From contig JBDKRC010000137.1 in NCBI GenBank assembly GCA_039683575.1, positions 23,704-87,703 on the forward strand: a stretch of DNA of 64,000 nucleotides, read 5' to 3'. The notes below the pieces were generated by a model that was not told the DNA's origin, made no database searches, and saw nothing but the letters and a program-made list of their open reading frames with translations. Below, piece by piece: positions 37,131 through 57,900 of this stretch. The position numbers were made by a program, and so were the translations under genes. This DNA comes from Armatimonadia bacterium (GTDB lineage Bacteria > Armatimonadota > Zipacnadia > Zipacnadales > UBA11051). Position 1 is the first letter of the stretch, and the number at the start of each line of letters is the position of its first letter.

Positions 37131-37892
37131 CTAATCAAGCCGCAATTCCCGCTGCACCGAGGCTCGCAGCCGGGCCGTGGCCTGAGTGTGGATCTGGCAG
37201 ATCCGGGACTCGGTGACGCCCATGATCTCGCCAATCTCCTTGAGGGTCAGTTCCTGCTCATAGTAGAGGCTTATTACCGTCCGTTCACGGTCTGGCAGAG
37301 CCAGGACCGCCGCTGCCACGAGCCGCCGCAACTCCACCTTCTCCATCACCGCCAGTGGGTCTGCGAACTCTTCGGAGACCTCGATACCGGCATAGTCAGC
37401 GATCTCATGCGGCTCATCCCCCAGCAGCAACTCCTCGATCGAGCCGATGGTAGCGATGCTTGCCGCGGACAGGAAACGATGATACTCCGGCAATTCCATC
37501 CCCATTGCCTCGGCGACTTCCTCCTCCTCCGGAGCACGCAGTAGCCGCCCTTCCAACTCGTTGATGACTTCCGCCAGTTGCCGCAGCTTGCGGCGCATGC
37601 TCCGCGGGGCCCAATCCTTGGCTCTCAGCGACTCCATGACCTCGCCCCGCACTACCGTGGTGGCATAGGTCTCAAACTTCACTCCGCGGTCCGGGTCGAA
37701 GCGATCCACGGCCTTGATCAGGCCGAGAATGCCCGCTGACACCAGGTCCTCGCGGTCCACGTTGTTCGGCAGATGGGTGGTGATGCGGCCGACAACATAC
37801 TTCACAATCCTGACGTGGTCACGGATCACCTGCTCGCGCTCTGCAGGCGTCTGGCACCACTCAGCAACTATCTGCCGAACCGTAGCGCTCAG
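37131..37892 (-). CDS. fliA: FliA/WhiG (sigma28) family sigma factor; probable CTG start
   Basis: DLVSAGILGL..AVDRFDPDRGVKFETYA, DWAPRS, LTLKEIG..GVTESRICQIH; first canonical start is 37829. Confidence 0.85.
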   Translation of the reverse strand: MSATVRQIVAEWCQTPAEREQVIRDHVRIVKYVVGRITTHLPNNVDREDLVSAGILGLIKAVDRFDPDRGVKFETYATTVVRGEVMESLRAKDWAPRSMRRKLRQLAEVINELEGRLLRAPEEEEVAEAMGMELPEYHRFLSAASIATIGSIEELLLGDEPHEIADYAGIEVSEEFADPLAVMEKVELRRLVAAAVLALPDRERTVISLYYEQELTLKEIGEIMGVTESRICQIHTQATARLRASVQRELRLD

Positions 37893-39892
37893 ATTGCTCC
37901 CTCCTTTATCACGGTCGCGACCGGGTCGGCCATGGGCACCTGGGCGGTGTGGATCGTGTGAACTTCAGTCAGCGGCAGCAGTTCCGCGGCCTGCACGGCG
38001 CGAAGGGCCGCGCCTGACTCTGCGATGAGTTGTGCCACCGCTCCGCGAGTCCGGGCGGTGCATAGTACGGTCGCCGGGTGCCCCGGGGCGCCGAGACGCT
38101 CTGCCAACTGCCTCAACATCGCGAACCATAGCGCTGCACGCTGAGGAGCCAAGGCCAGCGGCAGCCCCGAACGGTCCACGGCCGTTGCCAGTTCCTGCTC
38201 CAGTTCGCGCGCGAGTTCAACCACTTCGACGAAGCCACCGGGCGCCACCAGCCGCGTAATCGTCTGCGCCAGCGCGGGTCGCGCTGCCTCTGCCAGGTCG
38301 GCCGCTGTTCGGCCCTGCGCGGTTGCCAGCGCCTCCAGGAGCGATATCCGTTCAGTCAGGGGCACGCCCTCCGCCAACAGGCATCTGCCCACCTCACGCA
38401 CGTCGCTCAGCGTTACCCCTGCCTGCCTGACCGCCGCCACTGTCGCCGGATGCGTTACCTCCGCCATCTGCAGCAGTTCGGTCGCCCGCTGCAGGTCAAA
38501 CAGCTCGGCGGCATGGCTGGTCACTGACGCCCGCACGTGCAACACCAACACCGCCAGCGGGTCCAGGACATGGTAGCTCGCTGCGTCCAAAGGCTGGGCA
38601 TCGGTGTCTCGCAGCCAAGTCGCCTGCGCCCCATCCGGAAGGGCGGTTTCCAGCCCACCGCCCGGTAGCACCGCCTCCGCTACCGGAGCCACGAGCAAGC
38701 GCCCCGGGCGCAGTGTCGCCTCGGTGACCGTGCTGCCGCCCAACACGATGCGAAAACTGTTGCCCTGCAGGCCCTGCTCATCAGTCACGGCAAAAGGTGG
38801 CACCGCGAAGCCCAATTCGTCCGATAGCGCCCCGCGTGTCTTCGCCAGCAGCCCTGGCAAGTCGTGTCCGGCCACCAGGCCGATCAAGCCGAGGCCCAGC
38901 CGCAGTTCCAGTTGTCCTGCAGGCTGCTCCTCAGGCGGAGGGGGTTGCGACCACTGTGCACGGTGCAAGTACAAGCCGCAGGCGCCCACAAGCGCCGCCG
39001 ACAGCAGCAGTGGAGCCTTCGCTATCCCCGGAGCCAGTCCCACCAACAACAGGGCCATCGCCACTGCCCCGATCAGCGCGGGACGCGCCACCAGTTCGCG
39101 CAGGAACGGTCCGCCTTCCGGCTGCTCCGCTGTCCGCGCCAGCAGCAGCGCCGCCGCGGCCCCCATCAGGATCGCCGAGATCATCAGGATCGTCGCCTGT
39201 CCCAGGGCGGGAATGGCCTGATCGGCCACCGGCATCCCGTTTGCCATGCCGGCCAGCGGAATGGCAACGGTGATCACCACTATGGCGATGGCGTCCCCCT
39301 TAAGAAACCGGGCCACCCCATCCATCGCGCCAAAGAAGCTCTGCTGGGCCTCCATCCGCCGCGCCTCGGCCGCTCCGGCTTCAGGAGTGAGACGTCCCGC
39401 CGAGAGCGCCGCCTCAAGTGCCATCTGCTTGCCTGGCATGGCGTCGAGCGCAAAGCGCGCAGCAACTTCGGCAAGGCGCATGACACCGAGGTTGATCACT
39501 ATGAAGGTGACAATTACCAGCAAGGCCAGCAGCACCACGGCGCTGAGAATCTGGCTCCCGCCGCCGGTCATCTGCATCCCGAGACTCTGTGCCAGCGAGC
39601 CCGCAGCGCCTCCGGTCGTGACTGCCCGCAGCGCCCCGAGGCACAGCCCCACCCGGAGCAGGCTCGCCGTCACCATCACCACGGGCAGCGAAGCAAACCG
39701 CTCGACGCTTGCGGCCGAGGCCGCCAGAATCAGTACGGCCACCGCCAGCGCCAGATTAGCCGCGAATAGCGCGTCGAGCACCACGCCCGGCAGCGGCATC
39801 ACCAGCAACGCGAGCGCGACCAGCACGGCCAGCATTACCACGTGTTCACGTGTCAGCTTGAGCCTGGTTATTGGGCCGAGCAACTCAGCCAC
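37889..39892 (-). CDS. flhA: FlhA/SctV export gate protein
   Basis: RLAEVAARFALDAMPGKQM, FFGAMDGVARFLKGDAIA; GGAGG before GTG 39892. Confidence 0.85.
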   Translation of the reverse strand: MAELLGPITRLKLTREHVVMLAVLVALALLVMPLPGVVLDALFAANLALAVAVLILAASAASVERFASLPVVMVTASLLRVGLCLGALRAVTTGGAAGSLAQSLGMQMTGGGSQILSAVVLLALLVIVTFIVINLGVMRLAEVAARFALDAMPGKQMALEAALSAGRLTPEAGAAEARRMEAQQSFFGAMDGVARFLKGDAIAIVVITVAIPLAGMANGMPVADQAIPALGQATILMISAILMGAAAALLLARTAEQPEGGPFLRELVARPALIGAVAMALLLVGLAPGIAKAPLLLSAALVGACGLYLHRAQWSQPPPPEEQPAGQLELRLGLGLIGLVAGHDLPGLLAKTRGALSDELGFAVPPFAVTDEQGLQGNSFRIVLGGSTVTEATLRPGRLLVAPVAEAVLPGGGLETALPDGAQATWLRDTDAQPLDAASYHVLDPLAVLVLHVRASVTSHAAELFDLQRATELLQMAEVTHPATVAAVRQAGVTLSDVREVGRCLLAEGVPLTERISLLEALATAQGRTAADLAEAARPALAQTITRLVAPGGFVEVVELARELEQELATAVDRSGLPLALAPQRAALWFAMLRQLAERLGAPGHPATVLCTARTRGAVAQLIAESGAALRAVQAAELLPLTEVHTIHTAQVPMADPVATVIKEGAI

Positions 39893-39911
39893 GTAGCCCC
39901 TCCGTAATCGA

Positions 39912-40613
39912 TCATGAGCTTCTGCCCTTCCTTGCCCGCCGCTTCGCGAGCCCCGGCCCCTCCGTCTCCTTCTGCTCATCAAGAAGCTCCCGGTGTGACA
40001 GACGCGCCTGTTGCATGTATGCCGCCCGCGTCCACAGCAGGTGTAGCAGCGCCATGCCAACGAGCACCGCGAGCCATCTCCCCCACGCCTGCGCCAGCGC
40101 CGGCCGCGCCCAGAGTTCCTGCCAACTCTCCGCCCGGCCCCACGCTCCCAACAGCCCCGCCAGCACTACTCCTCCACCAGCAAGTGCCACCGTCCCCAGC
40201 ATCAGCCCCGGCCACTGCACTCCTCCACGCTTGGCCCGCCGCAAGCTTTTTCGCATCAGCCCCACGCTCTCTCCACTCCCTGCCTCACCCGTCTGCAGTC
40301 CCCGTGCGAGTGCTGCCACTATCGCAGCCGCGCCGCCCAGCGCTGTGATGACAAGCGCGCCCAGACCCAGGTGCCATGCCAGCAGGCTCCGAAGGCGCGC
40401 TGGCTCGTGCGCCACCAGTGCTTCATGCTGCAAGTCACGTGCCAGAACCAGCCGCGCGAGGTGCAGAAGCTGTGGGCCGAGGAATATCAGCCCCAGCGTC
40501 GCCCCAACCAGCACTGCCGCGCCAGTTAGCGCGGTCGTATCCGGTATCACCCCCGCTTGCCGCAACCGCGCCAGCCGTCGTGCTGTTGGTGGATAGCGCT
40601 TCAGCTCATCCAT
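39912..40613 (-). CDS. flhB: FlhB-like protein, membrane domain only (no NPTH domain)
   Basis: PPTARRL..LR..G N-terminal motif; ends RLSHRELLDEQKETEGP..KRRAR; position between fliR and flhA. Confidence 0.75.
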   Translation of the reverse strand: MDELKRYPPTARRLARLRQAGVIPDTTALTGAAVLVGATLGLIFLGPQLLHLARLVLARDLQHEALVAHEPARLRSLLAWHLGLGALVITALGGAAAIVAALARGLQTGEAGSGESVGLMRKSLRRAKRGGVQWPGLMLGTVALAGGGVVLAGLLGAWGRAESWQELWARPALAQAWGRWLAVLVGMALLHLLWTRAAYMQQARLSHRELLDEQKETEGPGLAKRRARKGRSS

Positions 40614-41337
40614 GCTGCGCCAGCCAGCGGACAAGCTCCCGCGCCGTCTCGTTCATCTGCCCGAGCATGAAGCCGCCAAGCAGTGGGGCGACGACCACCA
40701 GCGCCACGAGTGTCACGAGGTATCGCAGCCCGACCGCTACCTCCAGCGCCTGCAACCCCACCAGACATCGCTGTGCCGAGGCCGCGATCAGCGAGGCGAG
40801 CACCACCGCCAGCACCATCGGGGCTGCCGCGGCCAGGGCGACGGCGAGGAGCCTTGCCGGCCAGTAGAGCCACAGCGGGTGCGCCAGTAGTGGCGTCGTG
40901 CCGAGTAGCGGCAGAGCTTGATATGAGTCGCGAAGCAGCGCGATGAGCCAGTGAGGACCGTTCAGCACCACAAACAGTACTATGGCCAGCAAATACATCA
41001 GGTTGGCGACAGGGCCCTCTTCCCCATCCCCCACCAGGCCCTGCTCCGCCAGGTGGCCGGCGGCTTGCATGCCCCACACGGTAAGCCACAACCCGAAACC
41101 GAGAATCAGCCCAATCGCCACTTCGCGCACCAGCGCCGCGACATATAGCCCCACTGGCAGCAGCCTCACTCCGCCATCAAGCGACAACCCCAGGGGCAGC
41201 GCTACTACGGCAGCCACACCCAACCGCAGCGGCAACGGAAACTGCCGCGCGCCCGTCGGCGGCGCCAGCGACAGCGCGCCGGCGCACCGCCCGAAGACGA
41301 GCCCCCACAGTGGTAGATAGGCCGCCCAGTCTCCCAT
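40606..41337 (-). CDS. fliR: FliR export apparatus protein
   Basis: EVAIGLILG, QAAGHL, LNGPHWLI..L.DSY..LP, A.AAP. Confidence 0.85.
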   Translation of the reverse strand: MGDWAAYLPLWGLVFGRCAGALSLAPPTGARQFPLPLRLGVAAVVALPLGLSLDGGVRLLPVGLYVAALVREVAIGLILGFGLWLTVWGMQAAGHLAEQGLVGDGEEGPVANLMYLLAIVLFVVLNGPHWLIALLRDSYQALPLLGTTPLLAHPLWLYWPARLLAVALAAAAPMVLAVVLASLIAASAQRCLVGLQALEVAVGLRYLVTLVALVVVAPLLGGFMLGQMNETARELVRWLAQHG

Positions 41338-41345
41338 CGAGGCCC

Positions 41346-41615
41346 TTACCTAACGAGCTGGGGCACGCCCAGCCACAGAGTAATCCAATGTTGTGCCATA
41401 AAGGTTAGCATCCAGGCACCGAAGAGCAATAGGGCCACCGCTGCGGCCAACAGCCTCGGCGGGACGAGCGAGGCACCGTCAGGCTGAACGAGGGCCCCTT
41501 GCAGCAGGTTGGCAACGAGCCCCCCCGCCGCAATCGCACCCAGCAGCGGCAGGGCCACCCAGACGCCGAATAGCAGCCAGCTCTGCAGCAGGTTGATTCC
41601 AGTTGGCCAGTACAT
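41346..41615 (-). CDS. fliQ: Divergent FliQ export apparatus protein
   Basis: 89 aa; ALPLL..GL..LLQG...PPRL...GAWML; directly before fliR. Confidence 0.7.
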   Translation of the reverse strand: MYWPTGINLLQSWLLFGVWVALPLLGAIAAGGLVANLLQGALVQPDGASLVPPRLLAAAVALLLFGAWMLTFMAQHWITLWLGVPQLVR

Positions 41616-41646
41616 GCAGTCTCCATTCACGGGGCGCAGACCCCCG

Positions 41647-41675
41647 TTGACCCTGCACCGCAGATATGTCACAAT
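41647..41675 (+). promoter_or_regulatory. sigma70 promoter of the inserted lipoprotein gene
   Basis: TTGACC-17-CACAAT with TGn extension. Confidence 0.5.
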
Positions 41676-41724
41676 GCTGATCAACTTCTACCGCATCTAC
41701 CACTACCTCCACGGGGTGAAGCCG

Positions 41725-42570
41725 ATGTCCCGCCGCCTATTAGCCGCCCTCTTGCTCCCGTTAGCCCTGCTCATTACCGGCTGTGGTGGCGGTGGCAGTA
41801 CGCCCGTGCAGATCGCGGGCGATTTCTTTCCCCTGACCATCGGCCAGACGTGGAATTTCAATGTAGCCTTCACGATCAGGAGCGAGGGGCAGTCGCTCAC
41901 CGACCTCCAGGGGACGATGACGCGGACCCTGGTCGGGCGGGAGAGCATCACGGTTGACGGCAGACCATGCTCGACGTACGTCTTTGAGCACGAGTACACC
42001 GTCTCCAACGCACCAGACCTCAGCGGCTTCGGCAACGCGGCCCTGCGTGAGGCTCTGGGACTGCTCTTCTCCCCGGATGGCGGGCTGCAGAAAGTCCGCA
42101 GCTACTACACCGTCAGCGAGGACGCGGCTGATGGTTCCGACCGCATCACCCTCGTGGCCGTCTCCGAGGGAGACGGTCCGGTTGAGGCTATTCCAACCCC
42201 GCGCCCCTACTTGCTGAACCCGCCATATGACGGGCTCATGCAGGATGCCAGCCGCTGCTTCCCCCAGATGCCGCTCATGCCGCCTATGGACACGATCTCC
42301 AGTTCCAGGGCCACTGAGAAGCTGCTGGACTATGGTGATACCGGCGGCCCCCTGGGCACGCGCCGGTCAGTGGTCGCGATTTGCTACTTCGAGGCAGACG
42401 TCAACTTCGGTGCTTCGAGCGGTTCAATCGATGGGCGCGCACGCACTTTCTATCAAGACGGAGTTGGGATGAGCGCCAATCTCGCCGAACCATCAGACTG
42501 GTCGGCGACGGTTACTGTGCCTGGGGGTAGCGCCATCGTCACCTCGACCCTGCGCTTCGCCAACCAGTAG
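41725..42570 (+). CDS. Hypothetical lipoprotein
   Basis: MSRRLLAALLLPLALLITG-CGGGGS; FFPLTIGQTWNF. Confidence 0.75.
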   Translation: MSRRLLAALLLPLALLITGCGGGGSTPVQIAGDFFPLTIGQTWNFNVAFTIRSEGQSLTDLQGTMTRTLVGRESITVDGRPCSTYVFEHEYTVSNAPDLSGFGNAALREALGLLFSPDGGLQKVRSYYTVSEDAADGSDRITLVAVSEGDGPVEAIPTPRPYLLNPPYDGLMQDASRCFPQMPLMPPMDTISSSRATEKLLDYGDTGGPLGTRRSVVAICYFEADVNFGASSGSIDGRARTFYQDGVGMSANLAEPSDWSATVTVPGGSAIVTSTLRFANQ

Positions 42571-42592
42571 CACCCTCTGTCACTAGCCCCCG

Positions 42593-42629
42593 AAACGCAC
42601 CGTCCACTCCGTGGCGGTGCGTTTGCTTT
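42593..42629. terminator. Terminator between the convergent lipoprotein gene and fliP
   Basis: AAACGCACCG...CGGTGCGTTT then GCTTT. Confidence 0.6.
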
Positions 42630-42635
42630 GGGGCG

Positions 42636-43352
42636 CTACATGCTTCGAATCAGGGTATCGGCCAGCAGTCGCCAGCCGTCCACCATCACGAACAGCAGTA
42701 TTTTGAAGGGCAGGGAGATCATTGCCTGCGGGAGCGACACCAACCCCAGCGAGGCAATAGTCCCCGCAACCACCAACTCGATCACCAGGAAGGGCAGATA
42801 GATCACGAAGCCGATGATGAACGCAGCGCGCAACTCCGAGATCACGTAAGCCGCCGCGAGCGTGGGGAAGGCTGGTTGTCCGTCAGTGCGAGGAGGTGAC
42901 TTCTCGTAGTGGCGAAATAGCGCCAGGTCCTCCCCCCGTGCGTGGGCCGAGAGATATTTCCGCACCGGCCCCTCGGCAGCATTCGCCGCCGCCGTGAGCG
43001 ACGTCTTCCCCGCCAGCAACGGCTGCACTGCCCGCTCATTCACCAGCCCGAGCGTCCCGCTCATCGTGAACACCGTCAGCAGGATCGCAAGCCCAATCAG
43101 CACGGGGTTGGGGAGAATCTGCTGCGACCCGAGGCCTGCCCGCAGGAAGAACAGCACCACCGCAATGCGCAGGAATGACGTCAGCACTGCGAGCAGCGCC
43201 GGAGCCAGCGACACCGAAGCAAACAGCAGCACCAGCCGCAGGTACGAGGTCTCATTTCCCCCGCCCAGATCCACCCGCACCGCCCCTGCCTGCTGGGCCT
43301 GCACAGGCGCCCACACGAGAGCCAGGGCCCCGAGCCATACCAGCCGTCTCAA
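42636..43352 (-). CDS. fliP: FliP export apparatus protein
   Basis: TSFLRI..V..LRAGLGSQQ.LPNPVL.GLA, SELRAAF.IGF.IYLPFLVI, ISLPFKILLFV.VDGW. Confidence 0.92.
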   Translation of the reverse strand: MRRLVWLGALALVWAPVQAQQAGAVRVDLGGGNETSYLRLVLLFASVSLAPALLAVLTSFLRIAVVLFFLRAGLGSQQILPNPVLIGLAILLTVFTMSGTLGLVNERAVQPLLAGKTSLTAAANAAEGPVRKYLSAHARGEDLALFRHYEKSPPRTDGQPAFPTLAAAYVISELRAAFIIGFVIYLPFLVIELVVAGTIASLGLVSLPQAMISLPFKILLFVMVDGWRLLADTLIRSM

Positions 43353-43366
43353 GCCCGTAGCGCTGC

Positions 43367-43726
43367 TCAGCCCTCTTCCCCCCCTGCTTTTGCGACGTCC
43401 GTCTCAAGCAGCGTTACCCCCTGCGGCCCCGAGGCTACCAGGAGCGTCTGCCCTTCCACCTGCACGAGGTGCAACACGTTCCCGCCGGCGAGCGGCACGG
43501 ATTGCAGCACCTTCAGCGGTCCCTCACCTGTCAGGCGCAGGACGGGGCCTTGCAGCCGCCGCAAGAGGTAGTACGCGCCATAGATCAGGGCAACCACCAC
43601 GACCAGGCTGATCAGCGCCTGCAGCAGATATGGCCCTGGCTCATAGGCAGGCGGGGGCGCGACCTGCTGCTGTGCGCATGCCGCTCCGGCCACCACCGCT
43701 GCACCCGCTACCGCAAGCCACCTCAT
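43367..43726 (-). CDS. fliO: FliO/FliZ-like protein
   Basis: TM followed by LKVLQSVPL...LHLVQV.G..LLV...GVTLL; upstream of fliP. Confidence 0.75.
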   Translation of the reverse strand: MRWLAVAGAAVVAGAACAQQQVAPPPAYEPGPYLLQALISLVVVVALIYGAYYLLRRLQGPVLRLTGEGPLKVLQSVPLAGGNVLHLVQVEGQTLLVASGPQGVTLLETDVAKAGGEEG

Positions 43727-43995
43727 CGGCCAGCTACCTCAGTCACTCGCACCCCTAGCTGGTCTTCGACCATTACCACCTGGCCCAGTGCCACCACCCG
43801 GTCGCCGACCATTATCTCCGCCGGCTCGCCAACCTGCCGGTCCAGCACCAGCACGCTCCCTGCTCGCACCTTCAGAAGCTCTCCCAGCGGCACCTGCACC
43901 GTTCCCAGGCGCACCGTCACCTGCAGCGGCGCCTCGCTAAGGGATCCCAACTCATGCTCATTACTGCCAAGCACCGGCAACTTTTCGGCTACCAT
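43723..43995 (-). CDS. fliN: FliN (SPOA) C-ring protein
   Basis: V.LG....LGELL....GSVL.LDR.VGEP..I......A.GQVV.V....GVRVTE. Confidence 0.88.
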   Translation of the reverse strand: MVAEKLPVLGSNEHELGSLSEAPLQVTVRLGTVQVPLGELLKVRAGSVLVLDRQVGEPAEIMVGDRVVALGQVVMVEDQLGVRVTEVAGR

Positions 43996-44804
43996 GACAG
44001 GTCCTCCCGAACCGTAGCTACTTCCGTAACATGAACCGCCAGCCGCTCCCCCTTGGCTCCAACCTTGCCTCGCGCAAAGGCGTGCCCGTTCGCCGTCACC
44101 GCCGCCTGAAGATCCAGCGCCCCCAGTTGCAGCACATCGCCCGGTTGCAGGTCGAGCAGTTCCCGGAGCGTCAGGTCCACGCCCGGCATCATTGCCTCCA
44201 ACCGCACGACAGCCTGCTCAAGCGCTCCGAGGTCTATCGTCGCACTTTCTCTGCCTGCGTCACGGTATAACCGTCGCAGGCTCTCCCACGCGACCAGCAG
44301 CATGCCTTCACCCGTACTCTCGCCGATCCCAATCTCAAAATGCAGGCAAACGCATTCTGTGCCAGGCAACTGCCGCGTCTCTCCAATCGCCACTGCCCCC
44401 ACCGGCTGCGCAAACTCGGCCTGCACCTGCCCGGCCAAGTCTCTCAGCGGCAATTGCAGAAGCTCCAGGTCCGTGGCCGTTAACCTCTCGCGCGGGGCAA
44501 GGGCGCCATAGCCCAGCATCCCGGCCAGCACCGTCTCTGCCGCGGCGTGGTCCATCAACAGCACCCATTCCAGCCCCGGCTGCCCCCACCACGCTTCAAT
44601 GGCGCAGGAGCGTTGCTCAGGTTCGCGAAGTTCCCACCGCACCTCTCCAACGCGCGCCTGAAGGCTACTGAACCGGTTCAGGGAGGCTGTCACGACAGCG
44701 TGCAGCCGCGCTGCCAAGGCCGTCAGCGCGCGCTCTTCCGCCGGCGCCGGTGCCTCAGCGGCGGGTATGGGGTATTCCTTAGCCAGGTCCGCGGATACAA
44801 GCAT
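43989..44804 (-). CDS. fliM: FliM-like C-ring protein without the N-terminal CheY-binding peptide
   Basis: MLGYG, RLTATD, C-terminal SPOA LTLRELLDLQPGDVL. Confidence 0.7.
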   Translation of the reverse strand: MLVSADLAKEYPIPAAEAPAPAEERALTALAARLHAVVTASLNRFSSLQARVGEVRWELREPEQRSCAIEAWWGQPGLEWVLLMDHAAAETVLAGMLGYGALAPRERLTATDLELLQLPLRDLAGQVQAEFAQPVGAVAIGETRQLPGTECVCLHFEIGIGESTGEGMLLVAWESLRRLYRDAGRESATIDLGALEQAVVRLEAMMPGVDLTLRELLDLQPGDVLQLGALDLQAAVTANGHAFARGKVGAKGERLAVHVTEVATVREDLSW

Positions 44805-45235
44805 CAGGTGCGTCTCCCTCGGCTCTGCCGCAGGGCAAAGTGATCAACAAGCTCCTGCTCAGCCCGCCGCTGGCGCTGCGTCTGCGCCAATTCCAGCCGT
44901 TCAATCAGCCGCTCCAGTACCCGCGCCTCCTGCGCCGCCACGACCTCGGCTGCTCGCAATTCTCTCAGTCGCCCCTGTCGGGCCGCCAGCTCCAGCCGGA
45001 GCCGCTTCGCTTCCGTTACCAGCCACTCTCCGTACCGCCGTCGATGGCCCCGCACCGCGGCCGCTTCCCTCGCCGTCACCTGCAACGCCGTGTGCTCGTC
45101 TACCACCCGCTCCAGCGCCCCACGTCGCTGCTGAACCTCCGCCCGCTCCAGCTCTGCCTCGTGCCTCAGTGCCTCGTGTTGGCCCACCGCCGCACGGTGC
45201 AGCCGCCACAAGTTCGTCAGTCGCTGGGCCTCCAT
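44804..45235 (-). CDS. fliJ: FliJ-like coiled-coil stalk
   Basis: 143-aa helical protein after fliI; ARVLERL.ER...EQELVD. Confidence 0.7.
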   Translation of the reverse strand: MEAQRLTNLWRLHRAAVGQHEALRHEAELERAEVQQRRGALERVVDEHTALQVTAREAAAVRGHRRRYGEWLVTEAKRLRLELAARQGRLRELRAAEVVAAQEARVLERLIERLELAQTQRQRRAEQELVDHFALRQSRGRRT

Positions 45236-45238
45236 CGC

Positions 45239-46606
45239 CTACTCCGCCTCCGCCAATTGTAGCAGCCTCTGCTGCGTCTCCGCCGGGTCCGTGTACTCGT
45301 CCTCGCTCTGCCGCAGGAAGTCCTGCAGCCGCTCCCACAAACGCAGAGCCCGGTCCACGTGGGGCCGGGCCCCGGCCCTGTATGCCCCCACCGCCAGGAG
45401 ATCCTCTACCTCCCGCCGCGCTCCCACCAGTGCTCGCACCGTCCCCGCCGCCTGCCGGTGCCGCTCCCCCACTACCTGCGGCATCAGCCGTGATATGCTC
45501 CCTCCCATATCTATCGCCGGGTAATGCCCCTGGTCTGCGAGCTGCCGGCTCAAAACGATGTGACCGTCAAGTATTGCGCTGACTGTGTCCGCCACCGGCT
45601 CGCTCAGGTCGTCTCCCTCCACCAGCACCGAGTACACCCCCGTGATCGTCCCACGATCTGCCGCTCCGGCCCGCTCCAAAAGCCTTGGCAGGAACTCGTA
45701 CATTGAGGGCGGGAACCCGCGCGTGGTCGGCGTCTCGCCTGCCGCCAGGCCGACCTCTCGCTGCGCCCGGGCGAGCCGGGTCAGCGAATCCATGAGCAGG
45801 AGCACATTCAGCCCCTGATCCCGGAAGTACTCCGCGATGGCCGTGGCTGTCAGCCCTGCCGTGATGCGCACCAGTGCCGGCTCGTCCGAAGTCGCCACCA
45901 CCACCACGGCTTTGCCTCGCCCCTCACGCAGCTTACCTTCCAGGAAATCACGCACCTCGCGGCCACGCTCGCCGATCAGTGCCACCACTGTCACGTCTGC
46001 CTGGCTGTGCCGGGCCATCATGCCCAGGAGAGTGCTCTTGCCGGCGCCTGCGCCGGAGAAGATGCCCAGACGCTGTCCACGCCCGCATGTGAGCAGCCCA
46101 TCCAGCGCGCGCACCCCAAAGAACATCGGCTCCAGTACTCGCTGCCGCGTCAGCGGTGAAGGAGGCAAGGCCTCAGCAGCCCGCAGCACCGTGGGACCGA
46201 GGCCGCCCAGGCCGTCGATGGGTTGCCCAAAGGCGTCCAGCACGCGCCCCAGCGCCCCGTCGCCCACTTGAACCGTCAGAGACGTCCCCCGCGCCACCAC
46301 CTGACACCCCGGCTCGACTCCGCTTAGTCGGCCCAGTGGCAGCAGCAGCGTCATCCCCCGCCGGAAGCCCACAACCTGGGCCGCCGTCTCCCCATGCCCG
46401 TCATGTGTTTGGATTTTGCAGATCTCCCCCACCCCCGCCGGTGGCCCCTCCGATACGACAGTCAACCCGACAAGCTCCACGACCCGCCCCACAGCATCAT
46501 GGCGCCGCGTCCGCCGCACCTGTGCCGCCAGGTCCTCCAGCCACTGCTTCTCGCGTGTAACGAGAGGGCAGTGGGGGCTTGTAACGGTAGTTGCCTCCCC
46601 ACTCAT
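45239..46606 (-). CDS. fliI: FliI/SctN export ATPase
   Basis: GAGAGKST, IGERGREV, LLMDSLTR, LLERAG, DGHIVLSR. Confidence 0.93.
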   Translation of the reverse strand: MSGEATTVTSPHCPLVTREKQWLEDLAAQVRRTRRHDAVGRVVELVGLTVVSEGPPAGVGEICKIQTHDGHGETAAQVVGFRRGMTLLLPLGRLSGVEPGCQVVARGTSLTVQVGDGALGRVLDAFGQPIDGLGGLGPTVLRAAEALPPSPLTRQRVLEPMFFGVRALDGLLTCGRGQRLGIFSGAGAGKSTLLGMMARHSQADVTVVALIGERGREVRDFLEGKLREGRGKAVVVVATSDEPALVRITAGLTATAIAEYFRDQGLNVLLLMDSLTRLARAQREVGLAAGETPTTRGFPPSMYEFLPRLLERAGAADRGTITGVYSVLVEGDDLSEPVADTVSAILDGHIVLSRQLADQGHYPAIDMGGSISRLMPQVVGERHRQAAGTVRALVGARREVEDLLAVGAYRAGARPHVDRALRLWERLQDFLRQSEDEYTDPAETQQRLLQLAEAE

Positions 46607-47160
46607 GAGTGCGTCGCCTGCAGCGCCTGCGCAAGATTCCGCAACTGCGTGCCAATGGTGGCGTCCACACCGCCGCGATCGGTGCTCAGTCTGCAGCCGC
46701 CGGGCTCTATCTCCGTATCCGCCTGCCATGCCAGTTCCAGGGGGCACTGCTCCAGCAACCCCGGCTGAGCCTGCAGGTGCTCCAAATCATCGGGATGCAC
46801 CCGCACTACTACCCGGGTCGCGAAATGCAGATGCTGCAGGGCCTCCTGCAGCGTCCTTTCCACAACCGTGCGATCCACCGCAACCTCGCGCCTGATGACT
46901 TCCTCCGCCAACGCTAGAACCAACCGCAGCAGCGACGGCCGGAGCTCGCCCAGAAGCCGCTCCTGCTCCTGCACCAGTTCCGCCATCACGCGGTTGATGA
47001 GCCGCAGGTGACGGTTCAGGGTCTCGGTCTCGGGCTCTGGGACCGGTGGCGCCGACGCCACTGGTGTCGGCTCTCGTACCAGCTCCGCGAAGGGCTCATA
47101 TAGCGGCTGCACAGCCGCGGGTAGCGTCTGAGGGTCCAGGTTCTTCAGCAATTGCGCCAT
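46603..47160 (-). CDS. fliH: FliH/SctL-like protein
   Basis: AEEVIRREV, VHPDDL, D..I.PGGC......G.VDATI..QL. Confidence 0.85.
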   Translation of the reverse strand: MAQLLKNLDPQTLPAAVQPLYEPFAELVREPTPVASAPPVPEPETETLNRHLRLINRVMAELVQEQERLLGELRPSLLRLVLALAEEVIRREVAVDRTVVERTLQEALQHLHFATRVVVRVHPDDLEHLQAQPGLLEQCPLELAWQADTEIEPGGCRLSTDRGGVDATIGTQLRNLAQALQATHS

Positions 47161-47181
47161 TCGGCCATGCTCCCAGGCTTG

Positions 47182-47997
47182 CTACAGTTTGTGGTATTTG
47201 CGCCGTAAGGCCGCCGCCAGCGCCTCCCGCACTTCCCCCTCCAGTTCGTGTTGTGGTGCCATAGCCGGCTGCCTCTGCAGCCATGCCTCTACTCGCCGCC
47301 GTAGCGGACCCCGTACCTGCCGGGCCAGCACCGCTGCTACCTCCGGGCGTTCGTCCGCAAGCAGTCTCTCCAGGCCATTCGCACCTGCACCATTGAGAAA
47401 GTCAAATGGTCCCGCAGGTTCGGCAGTGTGCTTCTTCCACGGCTGCCTGGCCGCCACTGCAGCAACAACTCCCACCACAAGCGCGGCGAGCAACCACGGT
47501 ATCGGGGTCTGCCTCTGAGCAGGCAGGTTCTGGGGCTGCGTCTGCCCCTGGGCATACAGCAGCTTGCCGTTGCTCTCCACCACTGTCAGCCGCGCCGGTT
47601 GCAGTCCGGGGCAACCTTCGGTCAGGACCCTGATAAGGCTCTCAAGTACCTCTGGCGACAGTTCCCGCCCTGCCCGCGGCTTGATCAGCACCTGCGCCGA
47701 AAGCTCCTGCGCCGCCTCCCCCGTCAGCAGCACTTCCGCGCTCTGTACCGGCTCAAATCCGCGCAGCACCCCGGCGAGGCGCTTCTGCTGGCTGGCGCGC
47801 GAAGATGGCAGCGTATATGGCGCCGGAGCGAAATCGGCAGGCATGGCAAAAGCAGGGGCAACTTCGGCAGAGGCGGCCGGGGGAGGCGTCTGAGCGCCGA
47901 GAGGCATGACGAACGCAGACAAGAGGAAGATGAAGAAGAAGCTTCCGGAGTGAGAACACCGCCTGAGGTACGCGTACATCAGACGCCTGAGGGTCAC
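47182..47997 (-). CDS. Miniature FliF ring-building motif, TM and FliG middle domain fusion
   Basis: aa ~70-148 resemble FliF/YscJ RBM2 (V.SA.V...LSPE....PGL....TVV..NG.LL); aa ~196-270 resemble FliG-M (PFDFL...L.DERPEVAAVL); start uncertain. Confidence 0.7.
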   Translation of the reverse strand: MTLRRLMYAYLRRCSHSGSFFFIFLLSAFVMPLGAQTPPPAASAEVAPAFAMPADFAPAPYTLPSSRASQQKRLAGVLRGFEPVQSAEVLLTGEAAQELSAQVLIKPRAGRELSPEVLESLIRVLTEGCPGLQPARLTVVESNGKLLYAQGQTQPQNLPAQRQTPIPWLLAALVVGVVAAVAARQPWKKHTAEPAGPFDFLNGAGANGLERLLADERPEVAAVLARQVRGPLRRRVEAWLQRQPAMAPQHELEGEVREALAAALRRKYHKL

Positions 47998-54987: not shown

Positions 54988-57900
54988 CTATTGCATCGGT
55001 ACGAGCACCAGATAGTCGAGGTTGAGCAGGCTGGCCAGGCACGTCATCTCCAGGACGTGCTCCCCCGCCGTCAACTCCAAGGCCAGCGGCTGGCCCTGTG
55101 CGTTGGGTAACGCGAAAAGCCGCCACTCTTTCGGCGTTCCGCCGAAACCGTCGGTACTGGGGAAGCGATACAGCCGCGCCTCGCCCCCCAACGGCTTGCC
55201 GTCGACCGTGATCAGCCTGTCCGCCTGCGGCTCATGCGTTGCCCCCTTCACGACCACTTGGTACTTGCCGGCTTTGGGCACGCTCAACGTCCACTGCACG
55301 GACATGCCAGGAAGGGTCCAGTTGCCCATGCCCACACCGCCTGACAAGAAGGGCCGGTTCGTGTAGCGGCTTGGCGTGCCATTACTCGAGCCAGTGAAGG
55401 CCTCTGCCTCCAACATGACGGCTCCCGGCGCCGTTTCCGTCCCCGCCTCCGCAAACGGCACGGTCACCGGCTGGTCATTCTTGAGCAATCTCTCGAAAGC
55501 CAGGGAGACCCCCTTGGCGCTGGACCCGCGAACTGTGAGATTGTTGTGCGAGTTCAGCCACAATGTGTCTCCAGCCTTCGCCAGGCCGTTGTTGACTTGT
55601 ACCGCGGTGCCCTGCGGGTACTCGGCTTTCAGCACCCGTACCGGCTGCGGCTGTGCTTCAAAGCTGCCCCAGGTCAGCGTTCCGCCCGTCCACCGGGACA
55701 TGGTCTGCACCTGTTGCACCAGGGACTGGCCGTCCAGGCTCACCGACACCTGAGCCTGCGCTTGCTGCGGGGATCCGGGGTTAACCTCCAGCTTGTGCTG
55801 TCCTGCAGGTAGCTGCAGCTTCAGGCGCTCACCCGCGCAAGCATAGGAGGTCTGCGGCAGCGCCGTCCCATCCAGACTCAGCGTCTTTACTGGCTGCCGC
55901 ACCAGCAGGTCCACCTGCGTAGGTGTCTCACTCTGATAGTGAACCGTCCGCACCTCGGCGGTGGCGTTGTCCTTGCCCTGAAGCTCCAGCGTCGCCGTCA
56001 GAGGCTGCTCGCTTTGCAGGATCCGGAAGTCCCCCTGCTTGTCGTTGAGGTCCAGCGACTTCGCGCCGATGACGCTGCCCACTGCTCCGTCATTCCACGG
56101 CCCAACCACTGTGAAGTTCGGCCCGCCATCCCCCAACCATGCCGCGACGACCCCGCCCGGGTTTGGGGTAGTGCCCCAGACCAGGAGCAACAGGTCGCCC
56201 TCAAGCTTGGCCTGGACCTCAAGGTCCTGCTCCGGCTCGCTCGTCCGGGCCGGGCGAATGAAGGTCACGAAGCGCATCTTCTTGCTCTTCTCGACGGTCG
56301 TGGCGCTGGTATGCCACTCATTGGCCGGCTTTCGCACAGAGGGCGGGGTGAACTGGTCAGTCTGTTCGAGCTTCAGGCCCTGAGGCGTGATGAACTTGAC
56401 GAGGCACCGTGCCCCGCCGCGCGTGACAGTCACTTCCTGCTTGGCGGGGTCCAGCTTCATCTCCTGCTCGGCGTGAAGCGTCCAGGTGAAGGTGCTGGGC
56501 TCTGGTGCCTCAACCTCGTCCACGATGACAAAGCTGTTGGGCCGCAGGTACAGGATGTGCCGCTGGAACTTGCTCAGCTTGCCCTTGTATGCCGGCGTAG
56601 CATCGCCGAGGGCATAGTCTACCGCCGGGCTCGTGAAATGCTTCAGTATTCGGCCCTGTGCGGTCATGTCGAAGATCGGCTGGCCTTCGCCATTGACGAG
56701 GATATCGTTGTGGGCTTTGGTCTGTCGTGTGAAGCCAACGTCATGACCGCTGCCGTACCAGTCGTAGTAACCCGAGTCGATCAGCAGGGGTTCACCGTAT
56801 GCATACAGCACGAAGCTGTTCTGGTCCGCATGCGAGTGGTTGTACGAGCCATACTGCGAGCTTTTGAAGGCCAGCATGACATCGTCAGCGTCGGACAGGT
56901 CAGAATGCATGGCGACCCAGCCGATATCCGGGAAGTAGCGTCCCTGCGGCAGGTCGGCCGGGGGCCGCGCCGGTACCGTCTCATCATGCCAGAGATAGCT
57001 GTACAAGCCGAATGAGGTCTTCCCAGGCATCGTCTGCGCATACCATTGGAAATACGGGTTGCCATATTCCCTGGCGTATCGTGCCATGTTGCTTTGGTCG
57101 GTGGCGTCAGGCGCGCCGTGGTTGCCGTCGCCGAAGTGGTGCCGGTCGTTCCATGGCGGGTGCATGTACAGCTTGTACCAGCCATTGTTGCGGGTGTACG
57201 CCTTGTCGTACATGTCCAGCCCCGTCGCCGACTTCAGGGCGTCGAAGAACACCCAGGCGAAGTGCTGGCTCCACTTCCAGTAGCCAACGCCCTGGCTCCA
57301 GCCCCCCTCCTCGCCCCCCCAGGGCGGGAAGACAGCGGGATAGGTCGCCGCGATGTACTTGAACCAGGTATCGGGTTCTTCGGATTCATGGGCCAGAGCT
57401 ATGGAGATGATGCCCAGGTACCCGTAGGCCGTGATGCCATGGGAATCATACGGGTACTCGTTCAGCGACCGACCGTCCTCCGCAAAGTCCTTGTACAGCG
57501 TCCGCGCCCGAACCAGGATCGCCTCTCGCACTTTGTCTCGCTGCTCGGGCGTCATCAGATCCCAGCACCAGTCGTACGCCGTCGCCATCATCCACGCCAT
57601 ATCACGGAAGACCTGATCCTGGTTGCGGTAGGAGGTTGCCCCCATTGGATCCCACGTGGCCATCTCCAGCATCTGTGCAACTGCTGCGTCGCCATAGCGG
57701 CGATCACCGCTTAGCAGATACCCAAAGGCGAGGTTCTGCATGCGGTCGTTGGCGCTGCCCGCCATGCTCCGCAGCTTGTTGAGTTGCTGAACATCCGCAT
57801 CGGTCAGCCCCCCGGCCCCCGGCGTCACGATATACTCGCGCCCCGGCTCCTTATCTATCGGCCTGGTGAGAAGCTGCTCCAGCCGCGGCTTGAAGCTCTC

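Follow-up and report, generated by a model that had tools for sequence, protein, structure and literature searches.

A trimmed, flagellum-derived type III export gene cluster in Armatimonadia, found with and without ordinary flagellar genes alongside

Gene content and domain make-up of the cluster

We describe here a gene cluster at positions 37131-47997 of a 64,000-nucleotide stretch of DNA (the window) from contig JBDKRC010000137.1 of an Armatimonadia bacterium (assembly GCA_039683575.1). According to the list of open reading frames (ORFs) and their translations, 13 open minus-strand genes fill this interval in the order FliF-like, FliH, FliI, FliJ-like, FliM-like, FliN, FliO, FliP, FliQ, FliR, short FlhB, FlhA and FliA (Table 1), and we are confident that they form a real, flagellum-derived set of type III export genes. 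Except at the gap between fliP and fliQ, adjacent genes either overlap (by 4-8 bases) or are no more than about 25 bases apart, and every ORF of the cluster could be given a family identity by Pfam, NCBIfam or profile-profile comparison, apart from a lipoprotein gene that lies in this gap on the opposite strand. A preliminary description, made from the letters of the sequence alone, had the gene list and the gene order right, as well as the openness of all frames and the mostly tight packing; matches in these three kinds of search now name all 13 of the 13 genes. The assembly (6.23 Mb in 352 contigs, 96% complete) is called G000 in what follows, and the window's contig is called C137.

The FliJ-like protein has no family match in Pfam or NCBIfam, and was named by aligning nine orthologues with three ordinary FliJ proteins over the full length (hhalign, 95.1%, E 2.9e-8). 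The longest frames of FliI, FliQ and FlhA extend past their likely starts, which in the case of FliI is an ATG overlapping the fliH stop as ATGA. Orthologues of FliQ stand at the matching place in 14 of 18 related loci. The divergent FlhA scores higher with the flagellar model TIGR01398 (311 bits) than with hrcV (242 bits), both scores being far under the models' own cut-offs.

Table 1. Features of the cluster, of its neighbors and of the ordinary flagellar set of the same genome. Positions refer to the window or, where a contig is named, to that contig; dN/dS is the ratio of nonsynonymous to synonymous substitution rates between genomes G006 and G008; aa, amino acids.
Feature	Position	Strand	Basis	dN/dS
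Short FliF-like ring protein with FliG-middle-like tail, 271 aa	47182..47997	-	Pfam YscJ_FliF, profile positions 92-178 only	0.39
FliH (ATPase regulator/stator), 185 aa	46603..47160	-	Pfam FliH 83.8 bits; NCBIfam flagellar FliH models above SctL models	0.19
FliI export ATPase	45239..46606 (longest frame to 46747)	-	ATP-synt_ab 275.8 bits and T3SS_ATPase_C; TIGR01026 544 bits, over cut-off	0.11
FliJ-like coiled-coil stalk protein, 143 aa	44804..45235	-	Profile-profile only	0.40
FliM-like platform protein, 271 aa	43989..44804	-	FliMN_C at residues 195-263	0.30
FliN, 90 aa	43723..43995	-	FliMN_C 74 bits; TIGR02480 fliN 80.4 bits vs. SctQ 57.9	0.24
FliO, 119 aa	43367..43726	-	Pfam FliO 35 bits; TIGR03500 54.7 bits vs. 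cut-off 55.25	0.22
FliP export-gate subunit, 238 aa	42636..43352	-	Pfam FliP 205.6 bits; TIGR01103 fliP 200 bits vs. yscR 144	0.075
Lipoprotein	41725..42570	+	Signal peptide and lipobox LITGC in translation; between fliP and fliQ	
FliQ export-gate subunit, likely 89 aa	41346..41615 (longest frame to 41684)	-	Bac_export_3 24.1 bits, cut-off 25; TIGR01402 fliQ E 1.7e-4	0.15
FliR export-gate subunit, 243 aa	40606..41337	-	Bac_export_1 93 bits; fliR 62.9 bits vs. SctT 48.7	0.17
FlhB, membrane domain only, 240 aa	39912..40634	-	Bac_export_2 profile positions 3-108 and 179-235 of 335	0.22
Divergent FlhA, 667 aa, transmembrane and cytoplasmic domains	37889..39892	-	FHIPEP 351 bits, profile positions 2-652	0.20
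FliA/WhiG-type sigma-28 factor, 232 aa	37131..37829	-	TIGR02479 250 bits vs. cut-off 189.6	0.12
HisKA-domain protein	50779-50036	-	Pfam; upstream of cluster, co-oriented	
Response regulator	50039-49647	-	Pfam; upstream of cluster, co-oriented	
GAF and HD-GYP-type protein	49619-48153	-	Pfam; upstream of cluster, co-oriented	
Four flanking housekeeping genes				0.095-0.16
Ordinary FlhA	C44:40292		838 bits	
Ordinary FliP	C239:27689		279 bits	
Ordinary FlhB	C239:29375		Full-length (profile positions 1-335)	
Ordinary FliF	C44:11861			
Ordinary FliG	C99:14418		Sole FliG_C match of the genome	
Ordinary FliI	C44:14195		55% identical to window FliI	
Ordinary FliM	C44:61698-62693		Carries the usual N-terminal motif	
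MotA	C239:24634		One match in whole-genome search	

The preliminary description held that the losses in this cluster are coherent, and the domain analysis agrees: of FliF only the second ring-building motif (RBM2) is left, the FliG-middle-like tail comes without a torque domain, FliM is without its CheY-binding peptide and FlhB without its C-terminal domain. An AlphaFold2 model of the FliF-like protein (39-row alignment, mean predicted local distance difference test score, pLDDT, of 82.5) has an N-terminal membrane helix, an alpha-beta-beta-alpha-beta-beta ring-building motif at residues 65-149 (pLDDT >90), a second membrane helix at 166-184 and a helical cytoplasmic tail at 199-270 (pLDDT 82-94). 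Its best Foldseek matches are the FliF RBM2 chains 6sd2, 8fte, 8z5x and 7cgo (root-mean-square deviation 1.3-1.5 A over about 80 residues, 24-29% identity), and the E values for PrgK/EscJ are 100-1000 times weaker. RBM1 is absent, and so is the RBM3/collar part, which makes up the outer MS ring whose loss had been described. In hhalign the tail pairs with the middle domain of FliG (columns 110-194), which has a conserved E-x-P-Q stretch (72.8%, E 3.2e-5); Pfam detected no FliG family in this tail in six orthologues at E<=5. In two other Armatimonadota genomes the tail half of the profile also matches ORFs of 315 aa immediately following FliF (E 5.5e-10 and 2.9e-9), which we read as FliG because of their position and size. 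The model, fold search and hhalign together give the gene the RBM2, membrane helix and FliG-middle-like tail of a fliF/G fusion, the name it had originally been given.

The FliM-like protein aligns with ordinary FliM over FliM columns 117-328 of 334 (hhalign, 98.3%, E 2.6e-14) and does not have the N-terminus, with its CheY-binding peptide, that is carried by the ordinary FliM of the same genome. A complex model of this protein with the FliF tail scored 0.79, against 0.00 for the best of three controls, a mark attained by 58 of 80 solved complexes and by 2 of 110 mismatched pairs; at least 95% of the contacts are common to the runs, with a partner pLDDT of at least 83. The predicted interface joins residues 95-118 of the FliM-like protein (including the invariant L97-G98) to tail residues 26-31 (E-R-P-E) and 56-78, and it resembles the known contact between the middle domains of FliG and FliM. 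The model supports a docking of the FliM-like protein on the tail, although the pass may only reflect likeness to solved FliG-FliM complexes.

The cluster's FlhB ends shortly after its membrane domain, as does every one of its orthologues (237-266 aa), so that the autocleaving C-terminal domain, and with it the substrate switch, is missing as had been described; a whole-genome profile search found no separate gene for this domain. The core motifs of the two central proteins are intact, again in line with the earlier claim: the FliI translation has Walker A (GAGAGKST), Walker B (LLLMDS) and GERGRE, and FlhA keeps the charged loop R..EV.ARF.LD.MPGKQM on its cytoplasmic side. In a set of 40 flagellar FlhAs, 103 columns show at least 95% conservation; the divergent FlhA retains 65 of them, as many as four SctV proteins retain jointly, and for 20 of the 103 not one of the 19 divergent copies does so.

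Origin, distribution and selection

Elsewhere in the genome, on contigs C44, C239 and C99, lies a complete set of ordinary flagellar genes that includes a gate of its own (Table 1). Whole-genome searches found six rod-family and two flagellin matches (flagellin and FlgL), all off contig C137, and seven secretins, of which none is on C137. The claim of a system with "no axial substrates" is therefore right for the window and wrong for the genome, and the reported absence of flagellin, rod, MotA and secretin genes from the window is confirmed, the needle protein not having been searched for. Neither SctD nor a translocon turned up in the cluster, though no search was aimed at SctF, SctD or the translocon. 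The rod, hook and flagellin genes that exist elsewhere have a gate of their own, and so do not depend on the cluster as their sole gate. As a separate observation, one of the seven secretin genes (C44:30562-31062, a 677-aa frame) lies on the flagellar contig, about 10 kb before the ordinary flhA.

Compared with a flagellum, the cluster has the gate (FliPQR, FlhA and FlhB, the last as membrane domain only) and the ATPase complex FliHIJ; it does not have a full MS ring of FliF RBM1-3 with the FliG torque C-domain, having one RBM and a FliG-middle-like tail, and no rod, hook, filament or stator genes depending on its gate occur in the cluster or on C137. Its gene order is that of the ordinary fla operon of the taxonomic order to which the organism belongs, and the two sets are sisters in the tree described below, yet the cluster has parted from the ordinary apparatus in sequence (FliI 55%, FliP 46% and FlhA only 31% identical), in the domain losses of FliF, FliG, FliM and FlhB set out above, and in carrying no rod, hook, FliK, FliL, FlhF/G or stator genes.

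Three trees bear on its origin; the injectisomes are represented in all of them by the families Ysc, Mxi-Spa, Hrp2 and Rhc, and no rows come from Myxococcota or chlamydial systems (searching the L022 genome and 60 others of its phylum for Myxococcota SctV yielded flagellar-type FlhA only). In the FlhA+FliP tree (44 rows, 968 columns, LG+C20+F+G4 PMSF, careful search), the divergent clade (100/100, with a stem of about 1.5) is sister to the ordinary flagellar copies of the order (95/92), while the injectisome clade (four families, 100) joins elsewhere, without support. Long-branch attraction would be expected to join the two long clades, and this tree kept the divergent and injectisome clades apart. 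They are again separate in the FliI tree (30 rows, careful search, site-heterogeneous model), and a quick FlhA-only tree (63 rows, LG+G4) has a monophyletic divergent clade (100) and the four injectisome families as a separate clade. In NCBIfam, FliP, FliR, FliQ, FliN, FliH and FlhA all score higher with the flagellar models than with the Sct ones. The core proteins group with Armatimonadia flagellar copies (95/92) and not within the SctV/SctN/SctR clade, though FliI alone cannot reject a joint clade, and no secretin SctC is linked to them. The statement that the system is "neither flagellum nor injectisome" stands, as judged by trees and gene content, against the four injectisome families sampled. 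In plasmid records, 146 matches to FlhA (E<=1e-10) are all flagellar FlhA where annotated.

This evidence points to a simple history, in which the fla operon would have been duplicated in the ancestor of the order and then trimmed by deletion of flgB/C, fliE, most of fliF and fliG, fliK, flgD/E, fliL and flhF/G; the ordinary copy of fliA would have been lost later in the window's genome. One relative (G030) has a FliA paralogue, 49% identical to the window's FliA, about 2 kb downstream of its ordinary flhA.

In three families of the order, 18 loci hold the whole cluster with its gene order unchanged. Over 67 genomes of the order, the FHIPEP scores fall into two classes, ordinary (813-880 bits) and divergent (270-440 bits); by our reading of the score table the divergent class is present in about 44 of the 67. 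Seven genomes of one family (f5) have ordinary FlhA only, four of another (f7) have neither class, and both systems coexist in G000 and about 30 relatives. Fourteen genomes carry the divergent class only, and 12 of these (G002, G005, G006, G013, G023, G033, G037, G062, G064, G066, G067 and G068) have no flagellin and no rod match, five of the 12 reaching 92-96% completeness; the remaining two of the fourteen, G007 and G012, show one or two stray matches. A single FliP was found in all five flagellum-less genomes tested, and in genus g12 it is on a different contig from FlhA-FliA. Since the cluster is kept in relatives without a flagellum, it probably has some job other than flagellum building. 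A genome of family f6 (G052) has two ordinary-class FlhA matches (848 and 813 bits) and one divergent match, and may hold three gates.

Beyond the order, a one-genome-per-species pattern scan with the window's FlhA returned only ordinary flagellar loci among its best 80 (25-32% identity), none with the make-up of the cluster. In a 161-genome sample of the phylum, the fused FliF-like protein is full-length in nine of 13 members of the order and in none of the 148 other Armatimonadota, of which 70 match the RBM2 part only, inside an ordinary 470-630-aa FliF. The family of the fused protein has 48 members (E<=0.001) among 1.84 billion representative proteins, and 44 of them are no longer than 319 aa.

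To measure selection, a flagellum-less genome (G006) was paired with a flagellated one (G008), using NG86 and assigning FliN and FlhB by position. Synonymous divergence in the cluster (dS 0.41-0.69) is not saturated, and dN/dS lies far below 1 in every gene (Table 1); values near 1, which the preliminary description had named as a sign against it, were not seen. The cluster is constrained, though more loosely than its neighbor genes. That it is a repurposed machine, as had been suggested, has become more likely, given the 12 flagellum-less carriers and these low ratios.

As to neighboring genes, the lipoprotein had been counted as a member of the operon, which proved mistaken because the gene is on the opposite strand. 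Its conservation is confined to the window's family, where eight loci keep it at the fliP/fliQ gap (24-41% identity, dN/dS 0.29); it is absent in G001 and in family f6. It has no family match in Pfam or NCBIfam, and a search of 5.8 billion proteins gave four relatives. Its AlphaFold2 model is beta-rich (pLDDT 81), with weak fold matches (template modeling score about 0.3) to a putative lipoprotein, LolA3 and RseB/MucB-like barrels and a DUF3108-like lead from the Atlas. Upstream of the cluster, the HisKA, response regulator and GAF/HD-GYP genes are tied to it only in the window's genus (G000, G001 and G002), which hints at a cyclic-di-GMP or two-component input. Within the window's family the cluster keeps its housekeeping neighbors (PPIase, MazG, an S4-domain protein and PPDK), indicating vertical inheritance. 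Contigs from RNA libraries (three metatranscriptome runs of one study, labeled wastewater metagenome) cover the PPIase gene, the lipoprotein gene, the DHOD gene and a 159-base piece of flhA; the uncovered parts of the cluster carry no information either way. Further off, and unrelated to the cluster, a probable polysaccharide lyase of 1465 aa (54988..59385, minus strand) carries DUF4962 and heparinase II/III C-terminal domains.

Sigma-28, FlgM and the proposed working of the machine

The window's FliA is the only one in its genome over the family cut-off, the next matches reaching 128 and 120 bits, and FliA follows the divergent flhA in 18 of 18 loci. Its usual partner FlgM, a classic late substrate of flagellar export, is found in the flagellum-less genomes G002, G006 and G037 (62-70 bits, cut-off 25). 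G000 has two FlgM genes (65.7 and 40.8 bits), one in an ordinary flagellar locus and one an orphan at C162:31082-31408, and it is the orphan that matches the copies of the flagellum-less genomes. Both parts of a sigma-28/FlgM switch, a FliA over the curated cut-off and a FlgM-family anti-sigma factor, are thus present in the genome. The orphan, whose start bears a sigma-28-type site, is flanked by genes for an MFS-type transporter and a PIG-L-like deacetylase, and three genes with prepilin-type N-termini lie 3-5 kb upstream of it (C162:26092-28341).

Matches to the sigma-28 consensus occur at several places. Sites of the form TAAA/TCAAG-N15-16-GCCGAT stand just upstream of flgM in G000 (the orphan copy), G002, G006 and G008. 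Another (TTAAG-N15-GCCGATGA, 50802-50775) precedes the signaling genes upstream of the cluster, and G002 has TCAAG-N16-GCCGATAA at the equivalent intergenic place. Similar sites were found between fliQ and fliR in four of four f6 loci, before fliA in two of these, and inside flhB in G001 and G002. On the contig of the ordinary flagellar genes in G000, sites of the form TCAAG-N15-GCCGATAA were seen at C44:8638, before an rpoN-like ORF that precedes flgB, and at C44:44654, before flgF/G. From the sequence, the single FliA of G000 probably serves both the cluster and the ordinary flagellum.

A gene cluster of this content and domain make-up, conserved, under purifying selection and persisting in genomes without flagellar genes, is likely to be functional and independent of the flagellum. 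The reading that we put forward goes further: the cluster would encode a second type III export apparatus, independent of the flagellum and descended from a duplicated and trimmed fla operon, and possibly serving as a secretion-gated sigma-28 switch. Taken whole, we consider this reading about evenly balanced between right and wrong.

In such a machine the RBM2 ring would seat FliPQR, the FlhB membrane domain and FlhA in the inner membrane, and the fused FliG-middle domain would hold a platform of N-terminally shortened FliM and FliN directly, with no torque ring. The FliH/FliI/FliJ ATPase complex would feed substrates to FlhA, and FliO would assist the FliPQR gate. In flagellar export, late-class substrates dock on the cytoplasmic ring of FlhA. 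With neither an FlhB C-domain nor FliK there would be no dock for early substrates and no switch, and hence only late-class substrates, docking on this ring, would be accepted; in the absence of a rod, a hook and a secretin, these would end up in the periplasm. Among flagellar-type export clients, FlgM alone is retained by the flagellum-less carriers, and it is for this reason that we tentatively suggest FlgM export, acting as a secretion-gated sigma-28 switch, as the role of the cluster, a suggestion we hold with more doubt than conviction. Further cargo may perhaps be exported besides FlgM.

Several points weigh against this reading. Export, cargo and structure are all predicted from sequence. 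Genome-wide, sigma-28-like sites are only modestly enriched over a reversed-pattern control (14 vs. 10, 35 vs. 19 and 17 vs. 9), and because of this we draw no regulon. The presence of the sole FliA in the cluster, together with sites before ordinary flagellar genes, means that the placement of FliA may partly serve the flagellum. Retention of FlgM and FliA does not show export, because the non-flagellated Legionella oakridgensis keeps a working FliA-FlgM pair without a type III apparatus, its FlgM seemingly being degraded (according to the part of PMC5655016 used here). The flagellum-less carriers are metagenome-assembled genomes, in which missing flagellar matches do not prove absence. The dN/dS values of 0.3-0.4 for the FliF-like, FliJ-like and FliM-like proteins are three to four times those of the flanks, and the proteins change rapidly (G000 and G002 share 47% identity in FlhA and 35% in the FliM-like protein, as opposed to 91% in PPDK). 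The divergent FliP of G004 (L104 3804-4450) gave two matches that overlap but are in different frames, owing either to a frameshift or to faulty assembly; this is the sole such break among the 18 loci. As for the trees, the quick FlhA-only tree does not fix the position of the divergent clade, and FliI rejects neither placement (approximately unbiased test, p 0.40 for divergent with injectisome and 0.32 for divergent with ordinary).

An unlikely alternative is that the machine exports non-regulatory cargo (enzymes, toxins or surface proteins) in the manner of Myxococcus, to the periplasm or through an unlinked outer-membrane part, with FliA as a mere transcription factor. A full ATPase complex, platform and gate under purifying selection would be costly for a switch alone, and the clade-specific replacements at 20 conserved FlhA columns would fit a new clientele; the Myxococcus loci offer a precedent, being conserved, secretin-less and needle-less and judged functional in the portion of PMC3459982 consulted. 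The genome has seven secretins elsewhere and a conserved periplasmic lipoprotein lies inside the cluster in one family, but none of these secretins is on the cluster's contig and the lipoprotein is missing from G001 and from f6. Moreover, neither the cluster nor its surroundings hold a conserved candidate gene for a cargo, a chaperone or an effector; the flanks are housekeeping or signaling genes.

It is quite improbable that the gate parts form a membrane scaffold or channel that exports nothing, such as a "hat-shaped" inner-membrane structure or a nanotube platform. An inner-membrane structure tied to genes of the type III secretion system that belongs to the flagellum (fT3SS), and not to those of the injectisome, has been reported across bacteria (PMC9380563, in part), and the FlhB C-domain that is needed for ordinary substrate docking is gone. 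Against this, the cluster keeps the FliI catalytic motifs, FliH, FliJ and the FlhA cytoplasmic domain, with dN/dS of 0.11-0.40, all of them parts that serve substrate unfolding and delivery, and the published structures, as far as that part of the report goes, come from species with an ordinary fT3SS and are not tied to a separate paralogous gene set.

Still less probable, at very low likelihood, is an accessory or alternative gate of the ordinary flagellum, for a second flagellar type, a developmental stage or a back-up route. Both systems do coexist in G000 and its roughly 30 relatives, the genome's only FliA is in the cluster, sigma-28-like sites precede ordinary flagellar genes, and second partial flagellar systems are known in Legionella (PMC5655016, in part). 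However, 12 genomes keep the cluster where no flagellin, rod or ordinary FlhA was found, purifying selection is just as evident when a flagellum-less genome is compared with a flagellated one, the ordinary system has a full gate of its own, and the divergent FliF is without RBM3 and the divergent FlhB without the domain that recognizes rod- and hook-type subunits.

That the cluster is a decaying, functionless remnant of a duplicated flagellar operon would fit the fast divergence (FlhA 47% identity within the genus), the many lost parts, the one FliP in two frames (G004) and the scores far below NCBIfam equivalog cut-offs, but is close to refuted by 13 of 13 open frames, a gene order held in 18 loci from three families, dN/dS of 0.075-0.40 for the 13 genes, intact core motifs and losses that are domain-precise and not random.

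Comparison with known systems and meaning

Reduced type III systems derived from the flagellum are known in kind, and the Armatimonadia cluster, on our reading a second export apparatus beside the flagellum, is a further variant; we found no description of an Armatimonadota cluster of this sort in the literature, though the supplementary FliO list of PMC12403147 may include it. The nearest in content are the type-3-like loci of Myxococcales, secretin-less and needle-less, which were judged functional from the order-wide conservation of their sequence and gene order (PMC3459982, in part) and whose needle-less systems have been named T3SS* (PMC12075869, in part), T3SS standing for type III secretion system. 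As far as the consulted part of PMC3459982 shows, they too keep the gate, the ATPase and a small inner ring, and lack FlgBCDEK, FliE, FliG(C), MotAB, secretin and needle. FliO, once thought specific to the flagellum, occurs in these systems as well (PMC12403147, in part), and for this reason is not diagnostic of flagellar origin.

The two differ in other ways. The Myxococcales loci lie at the base of the non-flagellar clade in what could be consulted of the same literature, whereas the Armatimonadia cluster groups with its own order's flagellar FlhA+FliP (95/92). Unlike them, the cluster keeps flagellar-type FliM, FliJ and FliH, FliF-RBM2, the fused FliG-derived domain and a sigma-28 factor in the operon, and coexists with flagella in most carriers; the separation rests on grouping and content, the trees having no Myxococcota rows. 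The sequences suggest an origin that is probably independent of the Myxococcales systems. The fuller statement, that the flagellar export apparatus has here been exapted a second time, independently of the event behind the injectisome, in the form of a free-standing exporter that would gate its own sigma-28 by exporting FlgM, possibly with other periplasmic cargo, is on the doubtful side.

With the injectisomes (Ysc, Mxi-Spa, Hrp2 and Rhc) the cluster shares a homologous gate (SctRSTUV), ATPase complex (SctN/L/O), SpoA-domain platform (SctQ) and small RBM ring protein. It differs from them in that its SctU/FlhB is without the C-domain, its contig is without a secretin, and the trees keep the four sampled families apart from it. 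The FliOPQR-FlhBA "CORE" of nanotubes is a parallel for a non-flagellar use of export-gate proteins in the inner membrane. So is the "hat-shaped" structure, likewise a non-flagellar use of flagellar gate proteins in the inner membrane; in the available part of its description, however, structures of this kind use the cell's single flagellar set (PMC9380563), whereas the cluster is a dedicated paralogous set with its own ATPase complex, platform and sigma factor.

Legionella oakridgensis resembles the cluster's flagellum-less carriers in that sigma-28 and its anti-sigma factor survive the loss of the flagellum, flgM being sigma-28-dependent, and is unlike them in having no basal body or export gate, as described in part of PMC5655016. 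The same part of that source gives L. micdadei and L. fallonii a second partial flagellar set without flagellin, but with basal-body and hook genes. The Armatimonadia carriers, unlike Legionella, keep an export apparatus without any axial gene together with the FliA-FlgM pair.

The organisms concerned are environmental Armatimonadia, with no disease angle, and the interest of the cluster is evolutionary and mechanistic. The argument that the injectisome arose from the flagellum rests on one intermediate set, the Myxococcus loci. A second lineage with the same first steps, in which the rod, hook, filament and torque parts are dropped while the gate, ATPase and platform are kept, would provide a natural replicate of that transition, seemingly independent and with the parent flagellum still alongside in many genomes. 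The cluster also shows an irreducible core of a type III exporter, with, for example, FliF RBM2 and not RBM3, of FliG the middle domain and neither the N- nor the C-domain, and an FlhB that has no switch domain. Should FlgM turn out to be a client, the logic of the flagellar assembly checkpoint would have been made into a signaling device that stands on its own and has outlived its organelle.

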